Of a stretch of 64,000 bases of DNA, positions 18,835 to 58,238 are shown one piece after another; the stretch's first letter is position 1, and each line of letters opens with the position of its first letter. The notes beneath the pieces are model-generated. The model was not told the origin of the DNA. It saw only the letters and a program-made list of their open reading frames with translations, and ran no database searches. A program made the position numbers and the translations under genes. The DNA is taken from assembly GCA_964479955.1 (NCBI GenBank), contig CAYZNK010000003.1, forward strand, positions 66,329 to 130,328, in the 5' to 3' direction. This DNA is from an uncultured Candidatus Saccharibacteria bacterium. GTDB taxonomy: Bacteria; Patescibacteriota; Minisyncoccia; Minisyncoccales; Staskawiczbacteraceae.

Positions 18835-19003
18835 AAAATCATATTGGGTCCACTTGATCAATGGACCATTTTAAAAAAATAAGTGGCTACTTTACTCTAA
18901 AAAATGAACGCCCTTGCCCCGTATTTTTTTATGCGCCAAAAATAAAAAAATTAGGGCAAAGGGAGATACCCTAAAACCAGTAGGGTATTTTGTGTTTTTA
19001 ACT

Positions 19004-19100
19004 AAACCAAAAATCAAAAACCAAAAAGCAAAACCACAAACCAAAAATAAAAAAGTTTTTAGTCTAATTTTTTTCTGTATTTTTGGTTTTTGAGTTTTGG
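19004..19100. repeat. class C low-complexity hairpin element (AACCAAAAA arm / TTTTTGGTT arm), copy 1
   Basis: An A/C-rich arm (19004-19055) is complementary to a T/G-rich arm (19080-19100). Positions 19015-19047 are identical to 46860-46892. Confidence 0.7.
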
Positions 19101-19120
19101 ATTTTAATTTATCAAAATCT

Positions 19121-26165: not shown

Positions 26166-26194
26166 TTTACAAACTAATTAGCAAATCGCAGTTT

Positions 26195-26225
26195 AAAAAC
26201 TCCGCCAGAACCAGCGGAGTTTTTA
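26195..26225. terminator. bidirectional-looking intrinsic terminator
   Basis: AAAAACTCCGC (26195-26205) pairs with GCGGAGTTTTT (26215-26225). An A tract lies 5' and a T tract 3'. Confidence 0.65.
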
Positions 26226-26387
26226 AGTGTGTAGGGGGATTTTAAATGTACAAAATTAAATTCATGTCTCACAATTTTTAAATCTCTGTTTATTATTTCC
26301 GACAAAAAAAGGAAAAAGCAATTTTTATAACATTGTTGTGATGCGTAAAGTCTTATGACGAGTTAAAAACATCATATTATGCTGTGC

Positions 26388-26506: not shown

Positions 26507-28483
26507 ATGAAAATTAAGCACTTCATAGCAATAGCTGTTCTTATAACAGCGTTTTTAGGTTTTGGACAAAACGCAAGCGCTGTTACAATAGAAGAACTAT
26601 TGGCTCAGATAGCCCAATTGCAAGCGCAAATACAAGCATTGCAAGCCCAGTTGAATACAGGAACCTCTGCAACTGCTGCGTGGTGCTACACTTTTAATAC
26701 TAATATGGGATACGGGGCAACAGGCGCTGATTTTGAAGCTTTGATAACAGCTTTAGATAAGGAAGGTATAATGGAATTTATTTCTGTTAATAAGCCTTCA
26801 GAGTATAACGAAGTTATTGGAAGCGGAGTTGTTGAATTTCAGAAAAAATATGCCTCCGAAGTTTTAACTCCATACGGTTTAAAAAACGGTACAGGATATG
26901 TTGGAAAATCAACCAGAGCAAAATTAAATAAAATTTATGGGTGTAGCACAACACCAGTTTGCACCCCAAGCTGGATTTGCGGTAGCTGGAGCACTTGCGC
27001 AAATGGACAACAAACAAGAACCTGTTCAGATGAAAACAGCTGTGGAGTTACAACAAATAAACCAGCGGTAATTCAAACTTGCAGTTCCACTCAGCCCTCC
27101 ATCACCGTCACCTCGCCCAACGGAGGGGAAACGTGGAAAGTAGGCTCGTTGCAGAAAGTGACATGGACTTCAGCTAATGTTCCAACTTCTAATATGACAA
27201 TAGTTTCCTTGATTGACCCGAATAACAATCCAACAATAAATATGACCACAGTGACAAATAAAAACGGACAGGCGTATTTTATAGTTCCTTCCACTGTTAT
27301 AGCAGGTCAATACAAAGCTCACATAAAAACCGTTGTTAACGGAGTTTCCTACATAGACACAAGCGATGGATATATCACTGTTTCCTCAGCAACCTCAACC
27401 TGCACCCCAAGCTGGATTTGCGGTAGCTGGAGCACTTGCGCAAATGGACAACAAACAAGAACCTGTTCAGATGAAAACAGCTGTGGAGTTACAATAGACA
27501 AACCGGCGATAACGCAAGTGTGTGAAACACCTTCTATTATAGCTTATCCAACAACAGGTACTTTAATGGATTCTTCCCCTACTTTATGGGTTGATTTTGT
27601 TGTGAGTAATTATACTCCAAATGGAACAGAGAAGGTAGACTTTGGTGATGGGACAGTAAGTATTCTTGGATATACCACTGCGTACAATAGTAGACACGAC
27701 TATCATTCTGCTGGGATATATACAGTAAAATTACTTGCTGGCGCAACTATACTTGCAACTACGCAAGTAACAGTAACCTCCTCCACCCAGTCTTCCATCA
27801 CCGTCACTTCTGCTGGAGGGTCGGATATTCCTGGGCATAATCTTACTTTTTCCTGGACAGCAAGCGGTGTGAGTACTGTTGACCTTAGTTTAAAAAATTC
27901 ATCAAATATTTACGTTCTAGCAACAGGCGTGTCTGCAAGCGCCGGCTCTTATAGCGTCAGGATTCCTGCTGACGCTGTTCTGGGAACATATTCTATGGTT
28001 GTGAGCTCAGGCTCCACAGTTACTTATGGAGGACAATTTAGCATAGTGGCTCCAACAGCTGCAACAATTACCGTAACCTCGCCAAACGGAGAAGAGCTTT
28101 GGATAGTTGAGAATTTGCAGACAGTCAGATTTATGAATACAGGGGTTACAGGAACCGCTTGGATTTATTTGGATAAATACTCCGGAAGCACCATTACGAA
28201 AAGTGTTTTAGTGGGCGCTTTTCCACTTAGCACAAGCAAACAGTCGGAAGTACATAGTTTTAGTCTTTCCAGAAGCCTTGTAAATTCTATGGGCGGGCCA
28301 GGAAACCGTTTTAAAATCCGCGTTTTAAGCAATGCCTCAGGAACTCCGCAAGACACAAGTGATAACTATTTTACTATTGCCGACCCATTAGCAAGTTCTG
28401 ATATGCATCAGAACAACCTTGCATCAATCTCTGATGCAGTTTCAAAATTGGCAGAACAGATAAAATCTTTGCTTTCAAAATAA
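26507..28483 (+). CDS. secreted multidomain cell-surface protein
   Basis: It has a signal peptide (FLGFGQNASA), a Q/A coiled coil and a peptidoglycan-binding-like segment (VVEFQKKYASE...GYVGKSTRAKLNKIY). It has two identical Cys-rich modules (CTPSWICGSWSTCANGQQTRTCSDENSCGVT), three ITVTSP-type Ig-like modules and a PKD-like segment (VDFGDGT...YHSAGIYTVKL). Confidence 0.7.
   Translation: MKIKHFIAIAVLITAFLGFGQNASAVTIEELLAQIAQLQAQIQALQAQLNTGTSATAAWCYTFNTNMGYGATGADFEALITALDKEGIMEFISVNKPSEYNEVIGSGVVEFQKKYASEVLTPYGLKNGTGYVGKSTRAKLNKIYGCSTTPVCTPSWICGSWSTCANGQQTRTCSDENSCGVTTNKPAVIQTCSSTQPSITVTSPNGGETWKVGSLQKVTWTSANVPTSNMTIVSLIDPNNNPTINMTTVTNKNGQAYFIVPSTVIAGQYKAHIKTVVNGVSYIDTSDGYITVSSATSTCTPSWICGSWSTCANGQQTRTCSDENSCGVTIDKPAITQVCETPSIIAYPTTGTLMDSSPTLWVDFVVSNYTPNGTEKVDFGDGTVSILGYTTAYNSRHDYHSAGIYTVKLLAGATILATTQVTVTSSTQSSITVTSAGGSDIPGHNLTFSWTASGVSTVDLSLKNSSNIYVLATGVSASAGSYSVRIPADAVLGTYSMVVSSGSTVTYGGQFSIVAPTAATITVTSPNGEELWIVENLQTVRFMNTGVTGTAWIYLDKYSGSTITKSVLVGAFPLSTSKQSEVHSFSLSRSLVNSMGGPGNRFKIRVLSNASGTPQDTSDNYFTIADPLASSDMHQNNLASISDAVSKLAEQIKSLLSK
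26960..27053 (+). repeat. 94-nt exact intragenic duplicate, copy 1 (copy 2 at 27401..27494)
   Basis: TGCACCCCAAGCTGGATTTGCGG...GTGGAGTTACAA is identical at both positions by direct reading. Confidence 0.85.
27401..27494 (+). repeat. 94-nt exact intragenic duplicate, copy 2
   Basis: It is identical to 26960..27053. Confidence 0.85.
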
Positions 28484-28493
28484 AATAGGTTTT

Positions 28494-28524
28494 AAAAACT
28501 CCGCCAAAAATCAGCGGAGTTTTT
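28494..28524. terminator. intrinsic terminator after the surface protein gene
   Basis: AAAAACTCCGC (28494-28504) pairs with GCGGAGTTTTT (28514-28524). The stems are the same as in the terminator at 26195. Confidence 0.7.
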
Positions 28525-28570
28525 AATTGTTTAATAAAATTTATTGTATTCTTATTATCTCAAAATCTCA

Positions 28571-28614
28571 AAAATGTCGGAAAATTTCACGGCCGTGAAA
28601 TTTTCCGACATTTT
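28571..28614. repeat. 44-nt perfect palindrome
   Basis: AAAATGTCGGAAAATTTCACGG|CCGTGAAATTTTCCGACATTTT. The 36-nt core is identical to 42102-42137 inside uvrC. Confidence 0.9.
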
Positions 28615-28790
28615 TAAATCAAATAGCCAAATAGTCGAATAGCCGAACAATCAGATGGCTGGATATATTTAAAATAACATTTTTAGTTCTTCGATGTTTT
28701 TTAGCGCTTTTTGGCGTATATAAGTCATTATTTGGTTGAATTTGAATAAATATATGCAAATGTTATAATAGATTAATTTAGTGTAGAAAT

Positions 28791-31022
28791 ATGGCAAAAA
28801 AGAACAATCTTAAAAACGGGAAAAATGCGAACGTAAAAATAAAGGAAAAGCCAAAGGACTCAATTTTAAGCTCCTGGGCAAGAAGGTGGATAAAAGCCAC
28901 ATTGATGTTTTTGTTGGCGATAATTGTTGTTTTGTCGTTCCCTTATTTTAATAAAGCCGGAAAAACAGGAGAATATTTTATTGTGGTTGTTAATTTTTTG
29001 GTTGGCAAAGCTTTTTATACAATACCGTTTTTCCTGTTCGTGGCAGGAATGATTTTTTTAAAAACCCGCAAAAAAGGCAAGAATCTGGCAATGTTTCTGG
29101 CTGTCATTGTTTCAATTATAGGAATAGCGGGCATATTAGCAGCAAAAGATTTGAACGTAAATCCGGCGCCAGGCGGAGGCGGATGGATAGGATTTTTGTT
29201 GGCAAGGCTGTTTGCTGGCCTTTTTGGACTTTTGGTCGCCAATATTATATTTGCAACCATTTTATTAATAGGAGCATTTATTTTTTTACAGTTTGTCTGG
29301 TCAGAAGTCCAACTTGAAAAAGAAAAGAAAAAAGAAGAAAAGCAGTCTTATGTATTAAATAAACAGGAAGAAGAAAATATAAAAATAAAAGGTGTTTTAC
29401 CGGAAAAACAGGAGAAAAAACAGCCGGTAAACTCCAAAATGTCTTTATTTAAAAAAGGGAAGGAAGAAGAGCCGGAAAAAATAAAATTAAAAAAATCGGA
29501 AGACGAAAAAGCAAAAAGCGATTATATTTTGCCGCCCTTGGATTTGCTGTCAAAGAATGAATCAGCCCCAACATCAGGAAATATAAAAGAGAATTCAATG
29601 ATAATTAAGAATACTTTGGAAAACTTTGGAATTTCTGTTGAAATGGCAGAGGTAAACGTGGGTCCAACAGTAACGCAGTATGCTTTTAAGCCGGCAGAAG
29701 GGGTAAAACTTTCAAAAATTACAACCTTATCAAATAATTTAGCATTGGCATTGGCAGCCCATCCTATTAGAATTGAAGCCCCTATTCCCGGAAAATCATT
29801 GGTTGGAATTGAAGTGCCAAACAAAGTAAGGTCTATTGTCACATTAAGGAATTTGATTGCCCATGGAAATTATCAAAATTCCGCCAGCCCTTTGCTTATT
29901 GCTTTAGGGCGAAATGTTTCCGGTTCTCCTGTTTATGCTGATATTGCAGAAGGCCCCCATATGTTGGTTGCGGGAGCTACTGGAACAGGAAAAACAATCT
30001 TTTTGAACAGTCTAATTTTAAGCTTGTTGTATAAATATACTCCGGAGAATTTAAGGATGATTATGGTTGACCCTAAAAGGGTTGAATTTCAGCACTACAA
30101 TGATATTCCACATCTTTTGTGCCCCGTAATTTACGACGCAACAAAAACAATAAACGCTTTGCAGTGGCTGATACGGGAAATGGAAAGAAGGTTTGAAATA
30201 TTTTCAGAGGTGCCTGCAAGAAATATCGGGAGTTATAATGCAAATAAAACAGTGATTTCAAACGGAGCACAGTTGCCGTATATTGTTTTTGTGGTTGATG
30301 AATTAGCAGACTTAATGGCTGCAAAAGGTAGGGAGCTTGAAGCTGGAATTGTAAGGCTGGCGCAAATGGCAAGAGCAACCGGAATACATTTGGTATTGGC
30401 AACACAGAGGCCGTCTGTTGAAGTTATTACAGGACTTATTAAAGCAAATGTTCCTACGCGTATTACTTTCCAGGTTTCTTCGCAGGTTGATTCAAGAACA
30501 GTTATAGATACATCCGGAGCAGAAAAATTATTGGGAGCAGGAGATATGCTGTTTTTATCAGCGAAATCCGCAAAATTGGGCAGAATTCAAGGTCCGTATG
30601 TTTCTGAAAAAGAAGTTAAAAAAGTTGCTGATTTTGTTTCAGACCAGAAAGGGGGACTTGAAGATTTACAGACCGTTTTGTCCCAAAATCTAAAAGATGC
30701 ATTAGAGGCTCCTGACCCAAAAGAAGCTAAAGAAAACGGAGATTTTTTTGGAGATGATGACCCGCTATTTGAAGAAGTAAAAAAAATTGTTTTGGAAACT
30801 CAAAAAGCTTCCGCATCATTTTTACAAAGGCGTTTAAGAATTGGATATTCAAGGGCAGCCAGATTAATTGATATGTTGGAGGATAAAGGCATTGTGGGGC
30901 CTGCTGATGGCGCAAAACCGCGCGAAGTATATGCAGACAGGGGAGAATCGGCCACAGCCCAATTAATTCCCGGGGGAGGGCCGGATGAATCAGAAGAAGA
31001 TACAGAATGGAAAAAGGTTTAA
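28791..31022 (+). CDS. ftsK: DNA translocase FtsK/SpoIIIE
   Basis: It has N-terminal TM segments, a K/E-rich linker, Walker A GATGTGKT, Walker B VVDELADLM and a C-terminal winged-helix gamma-like domain (LQRRLRIGYSRAARLIDMLE). Confidence 0.9.
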   Translation: MAKKNNLKNGKNANVKIKEKPKDSILSSWARRWIKATLMFLLAIIVVLSFPYFNKAGKTGEYFIVVVNFLVGKAFYTIPFFLFVAGMIFLKTRKKGKNLAMFLAVIVSIIGIAGILAAKDLNVNPAPGGGGWIGFLLARLFAGLFGLLVANIIFATILLIGAFIFLQFVWSEVQLEKEKKKEEKQSYVLNKQEEENIKIKGVLPEKQEKKQPVNSKMSLFKKGKEEEPEKIKLKKSEDEKAKSDYILPPLDLLSKNESAPTSGNIKENSMIIKNTLENFGISVEMAEVNVGPTVTQYAFKPAEGVKLSKITTLSNNLALALAAHPIRIEAPIPGKSLVGIEVPNKVRSIVTLRNLIAHGNYQNSASPLLIALGRNVSGSPVYADIAEGPHMLVAGATGTGKTIFLNSLILSLLYKYTPENLRMIMVDPKRVEFQHYNDIPHLLCPVIYDATKTINALQWLIREMERRFEIFSEVPARNIGSYNANKTVISNGAQLPYIVFVVDELADLMAAKGRELEAGIVRLAQMARATGIHLVLATQRPSVEVITGLIKANVPTRITFQVSSQVDSRTVIDTSGAEKLLGAGDMLFLSAKSAKLGRIQGPYVSEKEVKKVADFVSDQKGGLEDLQTVLSQNLKDALEAPDPKEAKENGDFFGDDDPLFEEVKKIVLETQKASASFLQRRLRIGYSRAARLIDMLEDKGIVGPADGAKPREVYADRGESATAQLIPGGGPDESEEDTEWKKV

Positions 31023-31032
31023 GCAAAAAATA

Positions 31033-31191
31033 ATGCCAGGTAGTGAAAATTCGACAGTTCGTCATAATTTTCAAAGTTTGAAAATTATGACGAATAAAAG
31101 AAATCGCCATCTTGGCACAAGAAAATCAAGATAAAATATAATTATCCAGCAGAAAATCGATTTTTAAAGTCGAATTTCTACTACCTGGCAT
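31033..31191. repeat. ~160-bp TIR-bounded cassette ending at the recA start codon (copy 1)
   Basis: The 23-nt terminal inverted repeats are ATGCCAGGTAGTGAAAATTCGAC (31033-31055) and GTCGAATTTCTACTACCTGGCAT (31169-31191), matching at 21/23. A 37-nt perfect internal palindrome lies at 31058-31094. Positions 31112-31192 are 79/81 identical to 57484-57564. Confidence 0.8.
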
Positions 31192-32218
31192 GGTAAAACC
31201 AAAAAAAGAAAAATCGTTATCTTCAGGAACAGAAAATAAGGCTTTAATGCATGCCTTAGATGAAATTAAAGAGAGGTTTGGAGAAGGGGCAATAATGAAA
31301 ATGAGAGAAATCCAGGCCGTTAATGTTGATTCTGTCCCAACAGGCTCTATTGCAATGGATTTGGCTTTGGGAGTTGGCGGAATGCCGCGGGGCAGGATTA
31401 TTGAAATTTATGGAGGAGAGTCTTCCGGAAAAACAACCCTGTCTTTGCATGTTGTGGCCGAAGCTCAAAAAAAAGGTGGAACATGCGCTTTTGTGGATGC
31501 AGAACACGCAATGGACCCTGACTATGCCAGAAGAATAGGGGTAAATACTGACGACCTTTTAATTTCTCAGCCTGATTCTGGAGAGCAAGCGTTGCAGATT
31601 GTGGAAACTCTTGTAAAAACAGGGGATATTGATGTAATTGTTGTTGATTCTGTTGCCGCTTTAACACCCCAGCGGGAAATTGAAGGAGAGATTGGTGACC
31701 AGCATATTGGTTTGCAGGCGCGCATGATGTCACAAGCAATGAGAAAACTTGCTGGAATAATGGCAAAAACAAAAACAATTGTTATTTTTATAAACCAAAC
31801 AAGACAGAAAGTGGGAATGGTTTTTGGAAACCCGGAAACAACCCCAGGTGGATTAGCATTGAAATTTTATGCTTCAGTAAGAGTCAACTTGACAAGGACA
31901 GCCCAGATAAAATCCGGAGATGAAATAATTGGAAACCGTGTAAAGGCTAAAATAGTCAAAAATAAAGTAGCGGCCCCTTTTAGGACAGCTGAATTTGATA
32001 TTTATTATAACGAGGGAATTTCAAAATCAGGTGATGCTTTAAGGACAGGGCTGAACAGCGGGTTGATAAAACAATCTGGAGCGTTTTTCTCTTTTGACGG
32101 CCAAAAAATCGGACAGGGAACGGAAGCGTCAAAGTCATGGCTAAAAGAACATCCAGAAGCAATAGAAAAAATCAAAACAGAGGCAATGAAAACAGCCGGC
32201 GCGCCGTCAGAAGAATAA
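31190..32218 (+). CDS. recA: recombinase RecA
   Basis: It has Walker A GGESSGKTT and the motifs FVDAEHA, VVDSVAAL and FINQTRQKVG. Confidence 0.97.
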   Translation: MVKPKKEKSLSSGTENKALMHALDEIKERFGEGAIMKMREIQAVNVDSVPTGSIAMDLALGVGGMPRGRIIEIYGGESSGKTTLSLHVVAEAQKKGGTCAFVDAEHAMDPDYARRIGVNTDDLLISQPDSGEQALQIVETLVKTGDIDVIVVDSVAALTPQREIEGEIGDQHIGLQARMMSQAMRKLAGIMAKTKTIVIFINQTRQKVGMVFGNPETTPGGLALKFYASVRVNLTRTAQIKSGDEIIGNRVKAKIVKNKVAAPFRTAEFDIYYNEGISKSGDALRTGLNSGLIKQSGAFFSFDGQKIGQGTEASKSWLKEHPEAIEKIKTEAMKTAGAPSEE

Positions 32219-41553: not shown

Positions 41554-42996
41554 TTATTTTAATAGATTCTCTTTTCTTATTTTTTTATGAAAAGCAATTG
41601 CAAATCTGTGGGCCTCGTCATCAAGATACAAAATAAGGTTATAAACTTCTCTTGGCAAAGTTTTCAATAAAATTGGCTTTTTTTTGCCTTCCACAAATAA
41701 CTCTTTGTTTCTTTTTGCAATTGAAATTGCTTTAATATCTTTGGTTTTTGGTTTTTGGTCTTTGGTTTTTATTGCTATATTCAATTGGGCTTTTCCGCCG
41801 TCAATTAAAATAACCTGCGGATATTCCCATTCTTTGTGCGCAAATCTTCTTTGTAAAACTTCTCTTAGCATTGCAATGTCGTTTGGCTTTCCTGAAATTT
41901 TTATTTTGAATTTTCTGTATTTTGACTTGTCCGGTTTTCCTGCAGTAAAAACAGCCATTGAACCTGTTGCAAAATTTCCCTGGATATTTGAAACGTCATA
42001 GCATTCAATTCTGTTGATGTTTTTAATTCCCAAAATCCCAGCCAAAATTTCCCTTCCGCCTGGGGAAGGAAAGAATATTGCGGGGGATTGTTTTAATTTT
42101 TTGTCGGAAAATTTCACGGCCGTGAAATTTTCCGACAAATTTGACAAATTTGAATCTTTTTTTATTGTGATGTCCGACTCTTCTCTTGCTATGTCCGACT
42201 TTTCTCTTGCGAGGTCCGACCTCGCAAGAAATTCTTGGTTTATAACAGAGCTGTGGGACATTATGTTTTGCAAAGCGTAAATTTTATCCCTAACTTTTCC
42301 GGCTTCTTCAAATCTGCTGGCTTTTGACAGGGTTTGCATTTCTTTTCTCAAAGACTTTAAAACAGACTTGCTTTTTCCTCTTAAAACCAAAACCAGTTTT
42401 TTTATGTTGTTTTTATATTCGTAAAGCTTGCTTTGTGTCCTGAGAGTAGTCGAAGGGCTTAACAATTCCCCGTAAGGCCCTGGGCATAAATCCAGGTGGC
42501 ACCATGTGCATTTTAATTTTGAGTGGGTTTTGTTGGTGTAATATGGAAATACCTTGCGTAAAAATCTTATTGTTTTTTTAAGGGATGCCCCCTCAACAAA
42601 CGGGCCTATATATTGCGCGTTTTTTGTTTCCGTTGGCTGATGAGTGATAAAAACATAAGGAATTTTATTTTTATTTTCAATGATTGCGATATAAAAATAA
42701 TTTTTGTCGTCCCTCCAGACAATATTGAATTTTGGCTGGTATTTTTTTATTAAGTTTGCCTCTAAAATTAACGCTTCAATTTCTGACTTTGTTTCAATAA
42801 ACCCAATTTTGTTTACTTTGCTTACAAAAAATTTGTCTTTGTAAGATGGCTGGAAAAAATGATTTTTGACGCGGTTTTTAATGTTTATTGCCTTGCCAAT
42901 GTATAAAAGCTCTTTTTTGTTGTAGAAAAAATAAACTCCGCTGGTTTTTGGGAGGCTTTCAAAAGTTTTTTCTTTGATAAATCTTATTTTTTCCAT
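41554..42996 (-). CDS. uvrC: excinuclease ABC subunit C (short form with in-frame repeat insertion)
   Basis: It has a GIY-YIG N-terminus (GVYFFYNKKELLYIGKAINIKNRV), a UVR-like helix and an endonuclease domain (RIECYDVSNIQG). I see no C-terminal (HhH)2 domain. The linker contains palindromic DNA repeats at 42100-42230. Confidence 0.85.
   Translation of the reverse strand: MEKIRFIKEKTFESLPKTSGVYFFYNKKELLYIGKAINIKNRVKNHFFQPSYKDKFFVSKVNKIGFIETKSEIEALILEANLIKKYQPKFNIVWRDDKNYFYIAIIENKNKIPYVFITHQPTETKNAQYIGPFVEGASLKKTIRFLRKVFPYYTNKTHSKLKCTWCHLDLCPGPYGELLSPSTTLRTQSKLYEYKNNIKKLVLVLRGKSKSVLKSLRKEMQTLSKASRFEEAGKVRDKIYALQNIMSHSSVINQEFLARSDLAREKSDIAREESDITIKKDSNLSNLSENFTAVKFSDKKLKQSPAIFFPSPGGREILAGILGIKNINRIECYDVSNIQGNFATGSMAVFTAGKPDKSKYRKFKIKISGKPNDIAMLREVLQRRFAHKEWEYPQVILIDGGKAQLNIAIKTKDQKPKTKDIKAISIAKRNKELFVEGKKKPILLKTLPREVYNLILYLDDEAHRFAIAFHKKIRKENLLK
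42100..42139. repeat. 40-nt perfect palindrome inside uvrC
   Basis: TTTGTCGGAAAATTTCACGG|CCGTGAAATTTTCCGACAAA. Its core is identical to the intergenic palindrome at 28571-28614. It translates as SENFTAVKFSD on both strands. Confidence 0.9.
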
Positions 42997-46556: not shown

Positions 46557-46850
46557 ATGCAAATAAAACCAATTAGGGATCATATTTTAATAGAACCTAT
46601 TAAAGAAGAAGAAAAAACAAAGGCGGGAATTTTTTTGCCCGACACTGTTTCAAAAGAAAAGTCCGAGCAGGGAAAAGTAATTGCAATAGGACAGGGAAAA
46701 AAGACTGACGACGGAAAGATAATTCCACTTTCAATAAAGCCAGGAGACACTGTTTTGTTTTCAAAATACGGACCTACTGAAATAAAAGTTGACGGAAAAG
46801 AATATTTGATAGCAACAGAATCAGATATACTCGCTATTATTGAAAATTAA
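46557..46850 (+). CDS. groES: co-chaperonin GroES
   Basis: MQIKPIRDHILIEP..EEKTKAGIFLPDT is classic GroES. The start is moved to the ATG at 46557. Confidence 0.93.
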   Translation: MQIKPIRDHILIEPIKEEEKTKAGIFLPDTVSKEKSEQGKVIAIGQGKKTDDGKIIPLSIKPGDTVLFSKYGPTEIKVDGKEYLIATESDILAIIEN

Positions 46851-46960
46851 ACCAAAAAACAAAAACCAAAAAGCAAAACCACAAACCAAAAAACAAAAAG
46901 ATGTTTAGTCTAGTCTTTTCTATAATAATATTTTTGGTTTTTGGTATTTAGTTTTTGGTC
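46850..46960. repeat. class C low-complexity hairpin element, copy 2, between groES and groEL
   Basis: An A/C-rich arm is complementary to a T/G-rich arm (TTTTTGGTTTTTGGTATTTAGTTTTTGGTC). Positions 46860-46892 are identical to 19015-19047. Confidence 0.7.
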
Positions 46961-46963
46961 TAA

Positions 46964-48604
<1,641 letters not shown>

Positions 48605-57431: not shown

Positions 57432-57440
57432 TAGATTTAA

Positions 57441-57563
57441 TATAGTGGAAATTAGACAGCGTTCTATCAGAAAATTATCACTTTTGGCACAAGAAAATCA
57501 AAATAAAATATAATTATCCAGCAGAAAATCGATTTTTAAAGTCGAATTTCTACTACCTGGTAT
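57441..57563. repeat. TIR-bounded cassette, copy 2 (shorter, degenerate left end)
   Basis: Positions 57484-57564 are 79/81 identical to 31112-31192 and end at the start codon of the next gene. The left end, TAGTGGAAATTAGACAG, resembles 31041-31057. Confidence 0.75.
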
Positions 57564-58092
57564 GAATTGCCCAAACGATAACGAAGAATTAGAAAAAATT
57601 TTATTCCACAACGTGGAGGTTGATTTTTGCCCTTTGTGTCTGGGAATGTGGTTTGATGACGATGAATTGAGATTGGCGAAAGACAACAAAGATAAAAATT
57701 TGAATTGGGTGGATGTTGACTTATGGAGAGACAGGGGAAGGTTTGAGGTTTTAAAAATAAGCAAGCATTGCCCTGTTTGCAGGGTGGGATTGCAGGAAAT
57801 AAAATATGACGGGTCAAAAACAAAAGTTGATTTTTGCAAAAAATGCAGAGGCGTTTGGCTGGATAGGGGAGAATTCAAGCAAATAATAAATTATTTGAAA
57901 AATAAGTCAGATTACGGAATTCTGCATAATTATACAGAAAATTTATTATCAGAATTATGGGAAGTTTTTTCGGGACCAGAAACTTTTAGGAGTGAATTGG
58001 CGGATTTTCTAACTCTTTTGAAACTATTAAATTACAAGTTTGTTGTTCAGCATCCGCACATAAACGAGCTGATTGATAAACTGCCAAAATAA
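57562..58092 (+). CDS. double zinc-ribbon protein (TFIIB-type zf domain x2)
   Basis: CPNDNEEL...VDFCPLCLGMWFDDDEL and CPVCRVGL...VDFCKKCRGVWLDRGEF match the zf-TFIIB-like pattern C..C...C..C.G.W.D..E. Confidence 0.6.
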   Translation: MNCPNDNEELEKILFHNVEVDFCPLCLGMWFDDDELRLAKDNKDKNLNWVDVDLWRDRGRFEVLKISKHCPVCRVGLQEIKYDGSKTKVDFCKKCRGVWLDRGEFKQIINYLKNKSDYGILHNYTENLLSELWEVFSGPETFRSELADFLTLLKLLNYKFVVQHPHINELIDKLPK

Positions 58093-58096
58093 TTAT

Positions 58097-58228
58097 AAAA
58101 TCCCAAATCCCAAAATCCAAATCCCAACCAAATCCTAATTCCGCCATCCAGCGGACTAAATCCCAAAACGTTTTGGGATTTGATACTTAGAGTTTTGTTG
58201 GTCATTGGGGATTGGTCATTGGGGATTT
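58097..58228. repeat. class B low-complexity hairpin element, copy 2, with nested small hairpins
   Basis: The left arm is AAAATCCCAAATCCCAAAATCCAAATCCCAACC and the right arm is TTGGTCATTGGGGATTGGTCATTGGGGATTT. Nested inside are TCCGC-CATCCA-GCGGA (58140-58156) and the perfect palindrome AAATCCCAAAACGTTTTGGGATTT (58158-58181). Confidence 0.7.
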
Positions 58229-58238
58229 CAAAAGAATC

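Follow-up and report, generated by a model that had tools for sequence, protein, structure and literature searches.

Two genes in the 64-kb stretch of DNA analysed here (the window; contig CAYZNK010000003.1 from an uncultured Candidatus Saccharibacteria bacterium), recA and a gene for a zinc-ribbon protein, are preceded by nearly the same sequence. What is this sequence, and how did it come to stand at two start codons? We conclude that it is very probably a non-autonomous transposable element, a miniature inverted-repeat transposable element (MITE), of a large family found across Patescibacteria. Comparison of repeats within the window showed 79 of 81 positions to be identical between 31112-31192 and 57484-57564, with both segments ending at start-codon ATGs, exactly as an earlier reading of the letters (the original prediction) had described. 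A 31-nt subpattern of this repeat had no match in shuffled sequence. A 20-nt arm, GTCGAATTTCTACTACCTGG, is exact at 31169-31188 and 57541-57560 and lies inverted, with 2 mismatches, at 31036-31055; the number of arm matches expected by chance is zero (none in 100 shuffles).

The element proper upstream of recA occupies 31036-31188 (153 bp) and sits between the ftsK stop (ftsK ends at 31022) and the recA ATG. Its inverted repeat is 20 nt long and complementary at 18/20 positions (31036-31055 against 31169-31188). The 23-nt terminal inverted repeats (TIRs) originally proposed are thus real over 20 nt, and the outer 3 nt (ATG/CAT) instead form part of a 4-bp target-site duplication (TSD). The features of the recA copy are as follows (ORF, open reading frame).

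31032..31035, + strand: distal TSD, AATG, read from the sequence; its ATG (31033-31035) opens a 33-codon ORF internal to the element.
31033..31134, + strand: short ORF MPGSENSTVRHNFQSLKIMTNKRNRHLGTRKSR followed by a stop; it runs from the target-derived ATG through the distal arm.
31036..31055, + strand: gene-distal 20-nt arm CCAGGTAGTGAAAATTCGAC, of the 'GTGAAAA' type; the same arm is found in at least 120 paired elements.
31058..31094, no strand: perfect 37-nt palindrome (18+1+18 nt) in the hairpin position of the family, unusually long and A+T-rich.
31112..31117, + strand: TTGGCA, -35-like, within the family's internal box ACTAyCTGGyA; a putative promoter element.
31137..31142, + strand: TATAAT, -10-like, 19 nt after TTGGCA; not called by a sigma-70 scan.
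31151..31161, + strand: internal box AGAAAATCGAT, which repeats the distal arm's inner half.
31169..31188, + strand: gene-proximal 20-nt arm GTCGAATTTCTACTACCTGG, of the 'TTTCTAC' type, read from the sequence.
31189..31192, + strand: proximal TSD, CATG; its ATG (31190-31192) is the recA start codon.
31190..32218, + strand: recA (Pfam RecA, E=6e-129), the host gene, whose start codon is the insertion target.

The second copy has retained less of its left side.

57438..57457, + strand: decayed distal arm TAATATAGTGGAAATTAGAC, 14/20 against the consensus.
57484..57560, + strand: retained right part, with TTGGCA at 57484-57489, TATAAT at 57509-57514 and an intact proximal arm at 57541-57560.
57561..57564, + strand: TATG adjoining the proximal arm; its ATG (57562-57564) is the start of the zinc-ribbon gene.
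57562..58092, + strand: zinc-ribbon gene, the host of this copy, encoding two Zn_ribbon_TFIIB domains (Pfam).

The only ORF of the recA copy is the one of 33 codons, which reads arm and interior. The palindrome had been correctly predicted as perfect, and the degenerate left end ascribed to the second copy is the decayed arm listed above. Ten bases of the proximal arm (31173-31182, AATTTCTACT) equal the first 10 nt of the Cas12a CRISPR RNA (crRNA) repeat (AAUUUCUACU); the rest does not match, and we set the likeness aside as probably due to chance. A likeness of the arm to 16S rRNA (CCUGGUAGU) was also set aside as likely chance.

The arms recur far beyond the window. A family scan with the pattern GTCGAATTTYYACTACCTGG, run on one genome per species and requiring one exact arm, matched at least 118 stretches from about 45 assemblies, nearly all of them Patescibacteria: Parcubacteria lineages (Portnoy-, Yanofsky-, Lipton- and Nealsonbacteria), Gottesmanbacteria, Berkelbacteria and unclassified Patescibacteria metagenome-assembled genomes (MAGs). 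Some automatically labelled MAGs among the matches bear other names. Viral contigs gave no arm matches. At least 120 non-redundant arm pairs have the configuration seen in the window, with the same arms and variable interiors; their lengths peak at 130-140 bp, besides a short size class (67-78 bp) and a long one (306-323 bp). Many loci can occur in one genome (at least 17 in LBYG01, at least 21 in PEYL01 and at least 13 in MHMW01). Two matches lie elsewhere (L numbers are our labels for the sequences compared). A lone arm-like 20-mer in a Massilia sequence (L012, 4827-4846) is probably a chance match, of which we roughly estimate about 4. A MAG labelled Humimicrobiaceae (L044, 6061-6140) has a 27-nt arm-to-arm stub and a further arm before a gene; mis-binning or horizontal transfer could account for these arms outside Patescibacteria.

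Three kinds of evidence show that these elements have transposed. Identical 4-bp direct repeats lie outside the arms in 76 of the 120 elements, and about 19 more have repeats that differ by one base. The duplicated sequence is of at least 10 kinds, led by CATA/TATG (59) and followed by TATA, CATG, AAAA, CAGG, TTGA, TAAA, TTCA and CGTA, among others; this variability rules out a fixed recombination core and points to a 4-nt staggered cut of the target with a preference for YATR. Orthologous loci are filled in one genome and empty in another in three cases. L108 reads gaaaCATG, the element and then CATGatgagtattg, and L033 reads gaaaCATGttgaatattg with a single CATG; L102 reads agcCTTG, the element and then CTTGaaataaaatg, and its partner L103 reads accCTTGaaacaaaatg; L101 has CATG, the element and CATA, where L049 has a single CATA, in front of a gene that we read as rpsB. 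Finally, short elements are nested in the exact centre of the arms of other elements, flanked by AAAA or TTTT, and measure about 71 nt where the host arm reads GTGAAAA. In L016 (about 1-100) and L034 (about 1110-1200), a 20-nt perfect palindrome (CCTGCCTGCCGGCAGGCAGG) occupies the exact centre of the distal arm; this palindrome and the nested elements, found at one spot, mark the arm centre as an insertion hot spot.

We assign the feature to the MITEs. The recA element is short and lacks an ORF of transposase length. It and its family have TIRs and a TSD that is fixed in length and variable in sequence. The elements occupy many non-homologous loci, are polymorphic for insertion, and share their ends with a longer coding element described below. 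The mobile, MITE-like cassette supplying the 5' region and start context of recA, as the original prediction had it, is thus borne out by at least 120 further copies, TSDs, empty sites, nesting and a coding parent, and the search that it suggested for further copies and duplications yielded both, with copies in about 45 genomes and TSDs of 4 bp.

The elements follow one plan. Read with the gene to the right, they consist of (T/C)ATG, the distal arm, 0-2 nt, a hairpin, an A-run, the box ACTAyCTGGyA, an A+T-rich stretch that often contains GAAATTCGAt, the proximal arm and, lastly, the gene's own (T/C)ATG. The box ACTAyCTGGyA resembles the outer half of the proximal arm, and GAAATTCGAt repeats the inner half of the distal one. 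The recA copy fits this plan, with its palindrome in the hairpin slot, TTGGCA in the first box and AGAAAATCGAT as the second; the latter can base-pair with the proximal arm's inner half (fold of 31145-31215, z=-2.9). The hairpin is conserved in position and not in sequence: 42 of 55 hairpins begin no more than 2 nt beyond the distal arm, and 43 different stems occur. Stem pairs across the 55 hairpins (372 Watson-Crick, 6 G-T and 9 A-C) indicate a true DNA palindrome, without strand bias. The arms are complementary at 18 positions and non-complementary at positions 10 and 11 in 117-119 of 120 elements. They are inverted copies of each other except for a swap of the central dinucleotide, GA against AG, so that each element has one 'GTGAAAA' end and one 'GTAGAAA' end. 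We also observed a variant subfamily with co-varying ends (CCCCGTAGTGAAATTTCGAC ... GTCGAAATTCTACTACGGGG) nested inside standard elements, and paired arm changes (GGAAGT/ACTTCC and TCGAT/ATCGA) in L119. The sites of the variant subfamily are these.

Variant-subfamily sites: L032 958-977, L071 2637-2656, L091 4498-4517, L093 4963-4982 and L094 2089-2108.

In the great majority of cases the elements have inserted at a start codon, within the sequence (T/C)ATG. In 85 of 120 elements, an ORF of 40 or more amino acids begins one base after an arm, its ATG lying inside the duplication. Since the ATG is duplicated, the host gene keeps a start codon one base after the proximal arm, and a second ATG remains in front of the distal arm. 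The ATGs of recA and the zinc-ribbon gene are likewise the first possible starts, each one base after the arm. Solo proximal arms are also retained beside start codons. Judged by eye from N-terminal sequences, the genes behind the elements have unrelated housekeeping functions and include secA, rpoB/C, gyrB, dnaA, ndk, serS, argS, lon, ftsA, greA, eno, tpiA, murG and several ribosomal protein genes.

The target sites often resemble the starts of leaderless genes, with the ATG 6-8 nt behind a -10 box. In the window, none of the 44 ORFs of at least 150 amino acids has a Shine-Dalgarno (SD)-like motif at -16 to -4, a -10-like hexamer lies shortly before the ATG in many, and the base at -1 is most often T (25/44); initiation in this organism appears to be leaderless or SD-independent. 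Control ORFs in the family loci had an SD-like motif in 16% of cases and a TANNNT peak 6 nt before the ATG, which is a leaderless-gene signature. Upstream of the distal ATG of elements, TANNNT was enriched at spacers of 6-8 and an SD-like motif was found in 3 of 83; the empty site in L033 reads TACAAT-N7-ATG. The TANNNT signal and the scarcity of SD motifs at the distal ATG point to positions -1 to +3 of leaderless or short-leader genes as the preferred target.

We compared the two window copies with related genomes to place them in time. The nearest RecA sequences (88-92% identical) are those of L129, L130, L132 and L133, genomes related to Staskawiczbacteria, in all of which the ftsK...recA-rpsR-ssb-rpsF neighbourhood is kept. 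No element was found at recA in these four genomes or in L004; the upstream sequences of the four are short and A+T-rich, and that of L004 is TAAATT-N7-ATG. The absence of the element from the recA of these relatives indicates that the recA insertion is specific to the lineage of the window. An ordinary leader confined to recA orthologues, which the original prediction named as the outcome that would speak against mobility, does not fit an element that is missing from the recA of relatives and present at unrelated genes. Where the window has the element, the four relatives have an extra ORF of 162-215 amino acids without Pfam matches between ftsK and recA, and in L132 a PemK-family toxin gene follows recA directly.

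Extra ftsK-recA ORF: L129 703-1191, L130 96-743, L132 584-1186 and L133 532-1179.

The zinc-ribbon copy has a different history. The orthologous locus in L134, which carries the same fossil, was the sole match of a metagenome scan with a window-specific 23-mer. The 130-nt intergenic region before the zinc-ribbon gene is identical to that of L134 at 125/130 positions (96%); the flanking ORFs are 88-89% identical, with third codon positions at 78-82% (binomial p=3e-8). Judged from this comparison, the zinc-ribbon copy is older than the recA copy, predating the split from L134, and is a fossil under purifying selection that changes more slowly than synonymous sites. Homology between the two copies continues leftward (36/46 aligned bases identical, with 30 nt of indels), which reveals the decayed distal arm at 57438-57457, and nhmmer with the family profile aligned 57443-57570 (E=1.4e-13). 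With only 14/20 matches in its distal arm, this copy can no longer transpose; selection has kept it all the same, and it has thus been exapted as the upstream region of the gene. Look-ups of the window's RecA and zinc-ribbon protein found no exact-protein record.

Why, then, are the right parts of the copies so similar? Rather than two independent transpositions of one subfamily, the 81-nt identity could reflect recent local gene conversion or recombination, which we regard as a possible, if somewhat unlikely, origin. The identity falls from 79/81 on the right to 36/46 plus indels on the left, with a sharp boundary at TTGGCA, and the second copy predates the L134 split where the recA copy is absent from relatives; both observations speak for such an event. 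The recA copy nevertheless has both arms intact and a TSD-like flank, as a true insertion would, and selection on a promoter or leader could also have kept the right parts alike. For the contrast between 98% identity to the right of TTGGCA and divergence to its left, selection of this kind and local conversion are both possible explanations.

The long size class contains a coding form. In L039, L035, L066, L069 and L088, the interior consists entirely of an ORF for an 88-amino-acid GIY-YIG protein (PF01541, E=1e-15 over residues 3-69 of 88). These 306-323-bp elements have the same arms and TSDs as the non-coding forms, and a 125-bp element in L006 keeps the last 21 codons of the nuclease ORF. 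The nuclease family comprises at least 951 protein clusters at E<=1e-10, with lengths of 86-105 amino acids; the top 120 clusters are 73-100% identical, and where database names exist they read GIY-YIG nuclease or putative endonuclease, with one excinuclease ABC subunit C. Among the top 119 representatives with nuclease motifs, 56 begin MPGSENS(T/I)AI-M and a few more have variant spellings. The peptide is encoded jointly by the target-derived ATG, the distal arm and a 7-nt spacer of constant length, and in at least half of the cluster representatives the nuclease ORF is in frame with that ATG. The counterpart of the peptide in the recA copy is the short ORF at 31033..31134, which corresponds to the nuclease N terminus MPGSENST of full-length elements. 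At every genomic place examined, the nuclease stop extends into the proximal arm by one base, with the start of the next gene following 21 nt after it. Among solved structures, the protein is closest in sequence to UPF0213 BH0048 (1ZG2) and SLX1 (7WME); it also matches the group I intron endonuclease model TIGR01453 weakly, with a score under the cutoff of that model. All eight places that encode the nuclease P0043 are one and the same locus, which led us to reject the idea that an identical nuclease copy had recently transposed.

These observations suggest a scheme for the family. The non-coding forms of about 70-160 bp, tied to the coding form by common arms and by the nuclease remnant in L006, would be internal-deletion derivatives of a full-length element of about 320 bp. 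Lacking expression signals of its own, the full-length element would use the promoter and first ATG of the host gene for its nuclease, and the duplicated ATG would preserve the host gene. The nuclease, or a factor acting in trans, would move elements that bear the arms. In the window, the entire 5' leaders of recA and the zinc-ribbon gene would now consist of the element.

Whether the nuclease itself is responsible is a separate and more tentative matter. We offer as a possibility, held with low confidence, that the single-domain GIY-YIG nuclease of about 90 residues itself mobilizes the element, whose insertion duplicates an ATG and whose MITEs were exapted as leaders. The element would then be a prokaryotic transposon of a new class and, at about 320 bp, one of the smallest autonomous elements conceivable. 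Such an element, without promoter or start codon of its own, would insert at the +1/ATG of genes that are often leaderless, and its nuclease may recognise melted or distorted DNA, for example in a promoter open complex or at the mismatches in the middle of an arm extruded as a cruciform. The nuclease would then be expressed from the promoter and first ATG of the host gene, the second ATG would keep the host gene alive, and MITE derivatives would repeatedly have been exapted as 5' leaders of housekeeping genes across Patescibacteria.

It is also possible, though doubtful, that the transposase of a conventional insertion sequence (IS) with the same 20-bp arms, such as one of an IS5-, IS701- or IS1380-like family, acts in trans and that the GIY-YIG ORF is a passenger or an invading homing-endonuclease gene. 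TIRs of 20 bp and TSDs of 4 bp are typical of DDE elements, and GIY-YIG enzymes have no known strand-transfer activity. Small GIY-YIG genes can evidently move alone, as others lie beside duplicated tRNA segments. Yet in about 800 kb from about 45 genomes (8-kb windows around arm matches), no arm pair 0.4-5 kb apart encloses a larger gene; the nuclease ORF takes up exactly the interior, and a 7-nt spacer of constant length holds it in the reading frame of the target ATG; and the MITE in L006 keeps a nuclease fragment. The other small GIY-YIG genes (about 35% identical) are at L041 5807-6043, L094 2367-2603 and L004 2007-2204, by look between duplicated tRNA-like segments or beside a tRNA-like 3' end, and they may represent a second kind of selfish insertion in the same genomes.

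Several observations weigh against a MITE family mobilized by its nuclease, or temper it. The scan required one exact arm, and arm conservation is therefore partly an ascertainment effect. Between copies from the same genome, the interiors agree far less than the arms do (by eye they are about 60% alike). Most insertions thus appear to be old, and any current activity of the family is conjectural. In 16 of 83 gene-associated copies the two arm types have traded places with respect to the gene, but the interior keeps its usual layout; in the examples L057 5477-5607, L081 5168-5304 and L073 2174-2315, the hairpin stays beside the distal arm. In the 64-kb window, the family profile detected no copies beyond the two already known, and the duplication at recA is imperfect (AATG/CATG, 3/4 matching). 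Within the element there is no family-wide positional -10 or -35 signal, and the stops of ORFs from the distal ATG are placed much as in a control frame (median 66 against 70.5 nt); an internal promoter and translational coupling are thus unsupported as family features. To our knowledge, GIY-YIG enzymes are hydrolytic nucleases and not strand-transfer enzymes, and we know of no documented GIY-YIG mechanism that gives 4-bp duplications.

What the element does for its host genes today is less clear-cut. It supplies every base from the region of the ftsK stop to the recA ATG, and the second copy likewise supplies the 130 nt upstream of the zinc-ribbon gene; the context of both ATGs (…CTACTACCTGGY) is transposon arm. 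The hexamers TTGGCA...TATAAT noted in the original prediction are present, and intact in both window copies and in L134, but they are no more than promoter-like: the spacing is N19, a sigma-70 scan (16-18 nt spacing) did not call them, and the family has no such signal. The terminator scan made no call either. TANNNT showed no peak relative to the proximal arm or the YTGGYA box, sense and antisense profiles being similar, and a conserved internal promoter was dropped as a family feature. In these two copies, TTGGCA-N19-TATAAT may still be a promoter supplied by the element, the best indirect support being the purifying selection on the fossil. We hold the consequences loosely. Transcripts starting from this promoter would have a leader of about 40 nt without an SD motif and with a small hairpin; transcripts starting upstream would form an arm-arm helix that buries the AUG, and ribosomes translating the 33-codon ORF from 31033 might open it.

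The last of these ideas can be carried further. The present role of the element might be that of a structured RNA leader, in which an arm helix of 20-23 bp masks the start codon until it is opened or cleaved, in the way that RNase III acts on the helices of Correia elements. The predicted RNA fold of 31025-31215 does pair the arms and bury the AUG (-63 kcal/mol, z=-12.6), the arms are much better conserved than the interiors, and both the solo proximal arms at start codons and the selected fossil speak for a retained function. We consider this role unlikely all the same. With 6 G-T against 9 A-C pairs, the stems have no G-U excess, and so their palindromy favours neither strand; the arms show few compensatory changes (10, compared with 67 non-Watson-Crick cells); and an RNA-specific structure was rejected on these two counts. 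The fossil under selection has lost its distal arm, which means that its function cannot need the long helix. There was no match to an Rfam family: a gathering scan of the whole window returned two tRNAs only, and a permissive scan of 30950-31260 gave noise far below gathering scores. An RNA-leader function may coexist with transposon origin.

An ordinary cis-regulatory module that places recA and the zinc-ribbon gene in one regulon, possibly of the DNA-damage response as the original prediction had suggested, is very improbable, for although two genes share 98% of 81 nt ending at the ATG and the fossil copy is under purifying selection, these arms stand before many housekeeping genes of unrelated function across about 45 genomes, the element is absent from the recA of four close relatives and of L004, the varied 4-bp duplications, empty sites and nested copies mark insertion, and no LexA box of the GAAC-N4-GTTC type was seen on reading the element. 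The zinc-ribbon gene is followed by an ORF of the LemA family and an HtpX-like ORF, the latter named by eye from its translation.

The window contains other repeats. Two copies that are 95% identical (28568-28615 and 42102-42144) form a near-perfect palindrome of about 43 nt (TGTCGGAAAATTTCACGGCCGTGAAATTTTCCGACA) flanked by A-runs and T-runs, and this pair looks like a bidirectional terminator, another dispersed repeat. A hairpin, AAAAACTCCGCC...GGCGGAGTTTTT, recurs at gene ends (26183-26233, 28483-28533, 42933-42963 and 47762-47787) as a shared terminator-like repeat. Low-complexity intergenic repeats, TTTGGTTTTTGG / TTGGGATTTGG, occur on both strands at 19000-19116, 41727-41781, 46838-46967 and 58085-58233.

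How does the family compare with known elements? MITEs are a known kind of element; the literature searched contained no description of this family or of its arm sequences. Correia elements of Neisseria (CREE/NEMIS), like RUP, BOX and ERIC, are short (about 100-160 bp), multi-copy, bounded by TIRs and often found upstream of genes. They and similar MITEs are co-transcribed, can form long mRNA hairpins and can alter expression, and Correia elements are, by analogy, the closest functional counterpart among MITEs. Correia elements have 26-bp TIRs, a TA duplication, no coding parent and no start-codon positioning; the family here has an unrelated TIR (CCAGGTAGTGAAAATTCGAC), a 4-bp YATR duplication, an ATG target and a coding parent. 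The IS5, IS701 and IS1380 families have DDE parents and 4-bp duplications, with YTAR as the IS5 target. Their MITEs and ours alike have TIRs close to 20 bp in length, duplicate 4 bp and prefer a target that is short and palindromic (YTAR for IS5, YATR here), but no DDE transposase lies between the arms in the loci scanned, where the only coding form is GIY-YIG.

Homing copies a gene into one cognate allele by homologous repair, makes no TIRs or TSDs and does not invade many unrelated loci. Homing endonucleases with free-standing or intron-encoded genes, such as I-TevI and the T4 Seg proteins, resemble the coding element in being selfish GIY-YIG genes with minimal extra sequence; the nuclease here differs in lacking any DNA-binding domain and in being associated with TIRs, TSDs and many unrelated loci. 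REP/BIME-RAYT and IS200/IS605 systems use HUH Y1 enzymes and have no TSD and no long TIRs. They are similar in their high-copy short palindromes and in the hairpin beside the element end, and their copies depend on a small nuclease that recognises DNA secondary structure.

The closest published concept is Ssn/NTS. In the accessible part of the report, the Ssn proteins are single-domain GIY-YIG, site-specific single-stranded DNA nucleases flanked by hairpin repeats (NTS, or SRM), belong to CDD cd10448 (GIY-YIG_unchar_3) and cleave single-stranded DNA beside the repeat, and the authors themselves note the likeness of Ssn/SRM to insertion sequences (Chenal et al. 2025, PMC11893778). As here, a single-domain GIY-YIG gene of about 90 amino acids is bracketed by a short conserved repeat in an IS-like arrangement, and many repeat copies without an ORF adjoin genes (PMC11893778). 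The differences are equally plain. The SRM motif HGTCWYN0-2YYVSBRHN0-5WNVSBRGN0-2RNCYNB has no match in 83 elements here on either strand; SRM/NTS units are self-contained hairpins of 20-50 nt, whereas the flanks here are halves of one inverted repeat; and, unlike here, that part of the report gives no TSDs, empty sites or start-codon position for Ssn (PMC11893778).

Two properties of the family are unusual: insertion at start codons that duplicates the ATG, and a minimal coding form that consists of GIY-YIG alone. If our reading is correct, the very small, streamlined genomes of Patescibacteria harbour dozens of these elements, placed precisely at start codons of essential genes, a striking compromise between parasite and host in genomes with almost no intergenic space. 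There would be a type of transposon with a minimal GIY-YIG nuclease as its sole gene and a borrowed promoter and start codon, which would bear on a question that the accessible part of the Ssn/NTS report leaves open, namely how repeats associated with small GIY-YIG genes spread. The MPGSENST... N termini of hundreds of 'GIY-YIG nuclease family proteins' would be translated transposon arms, and gene starts directly after ...CTACTACCTGG(Y)ATG could be called with confidence. The insertions would also be natural experiments on translation initiation in the candidate phyla radiation (CPR), whose members lack SD motifs and are prone to leaderless genes; in these experiments leaderless genes have been turned into genes with structured leaders of 130-150 nt.

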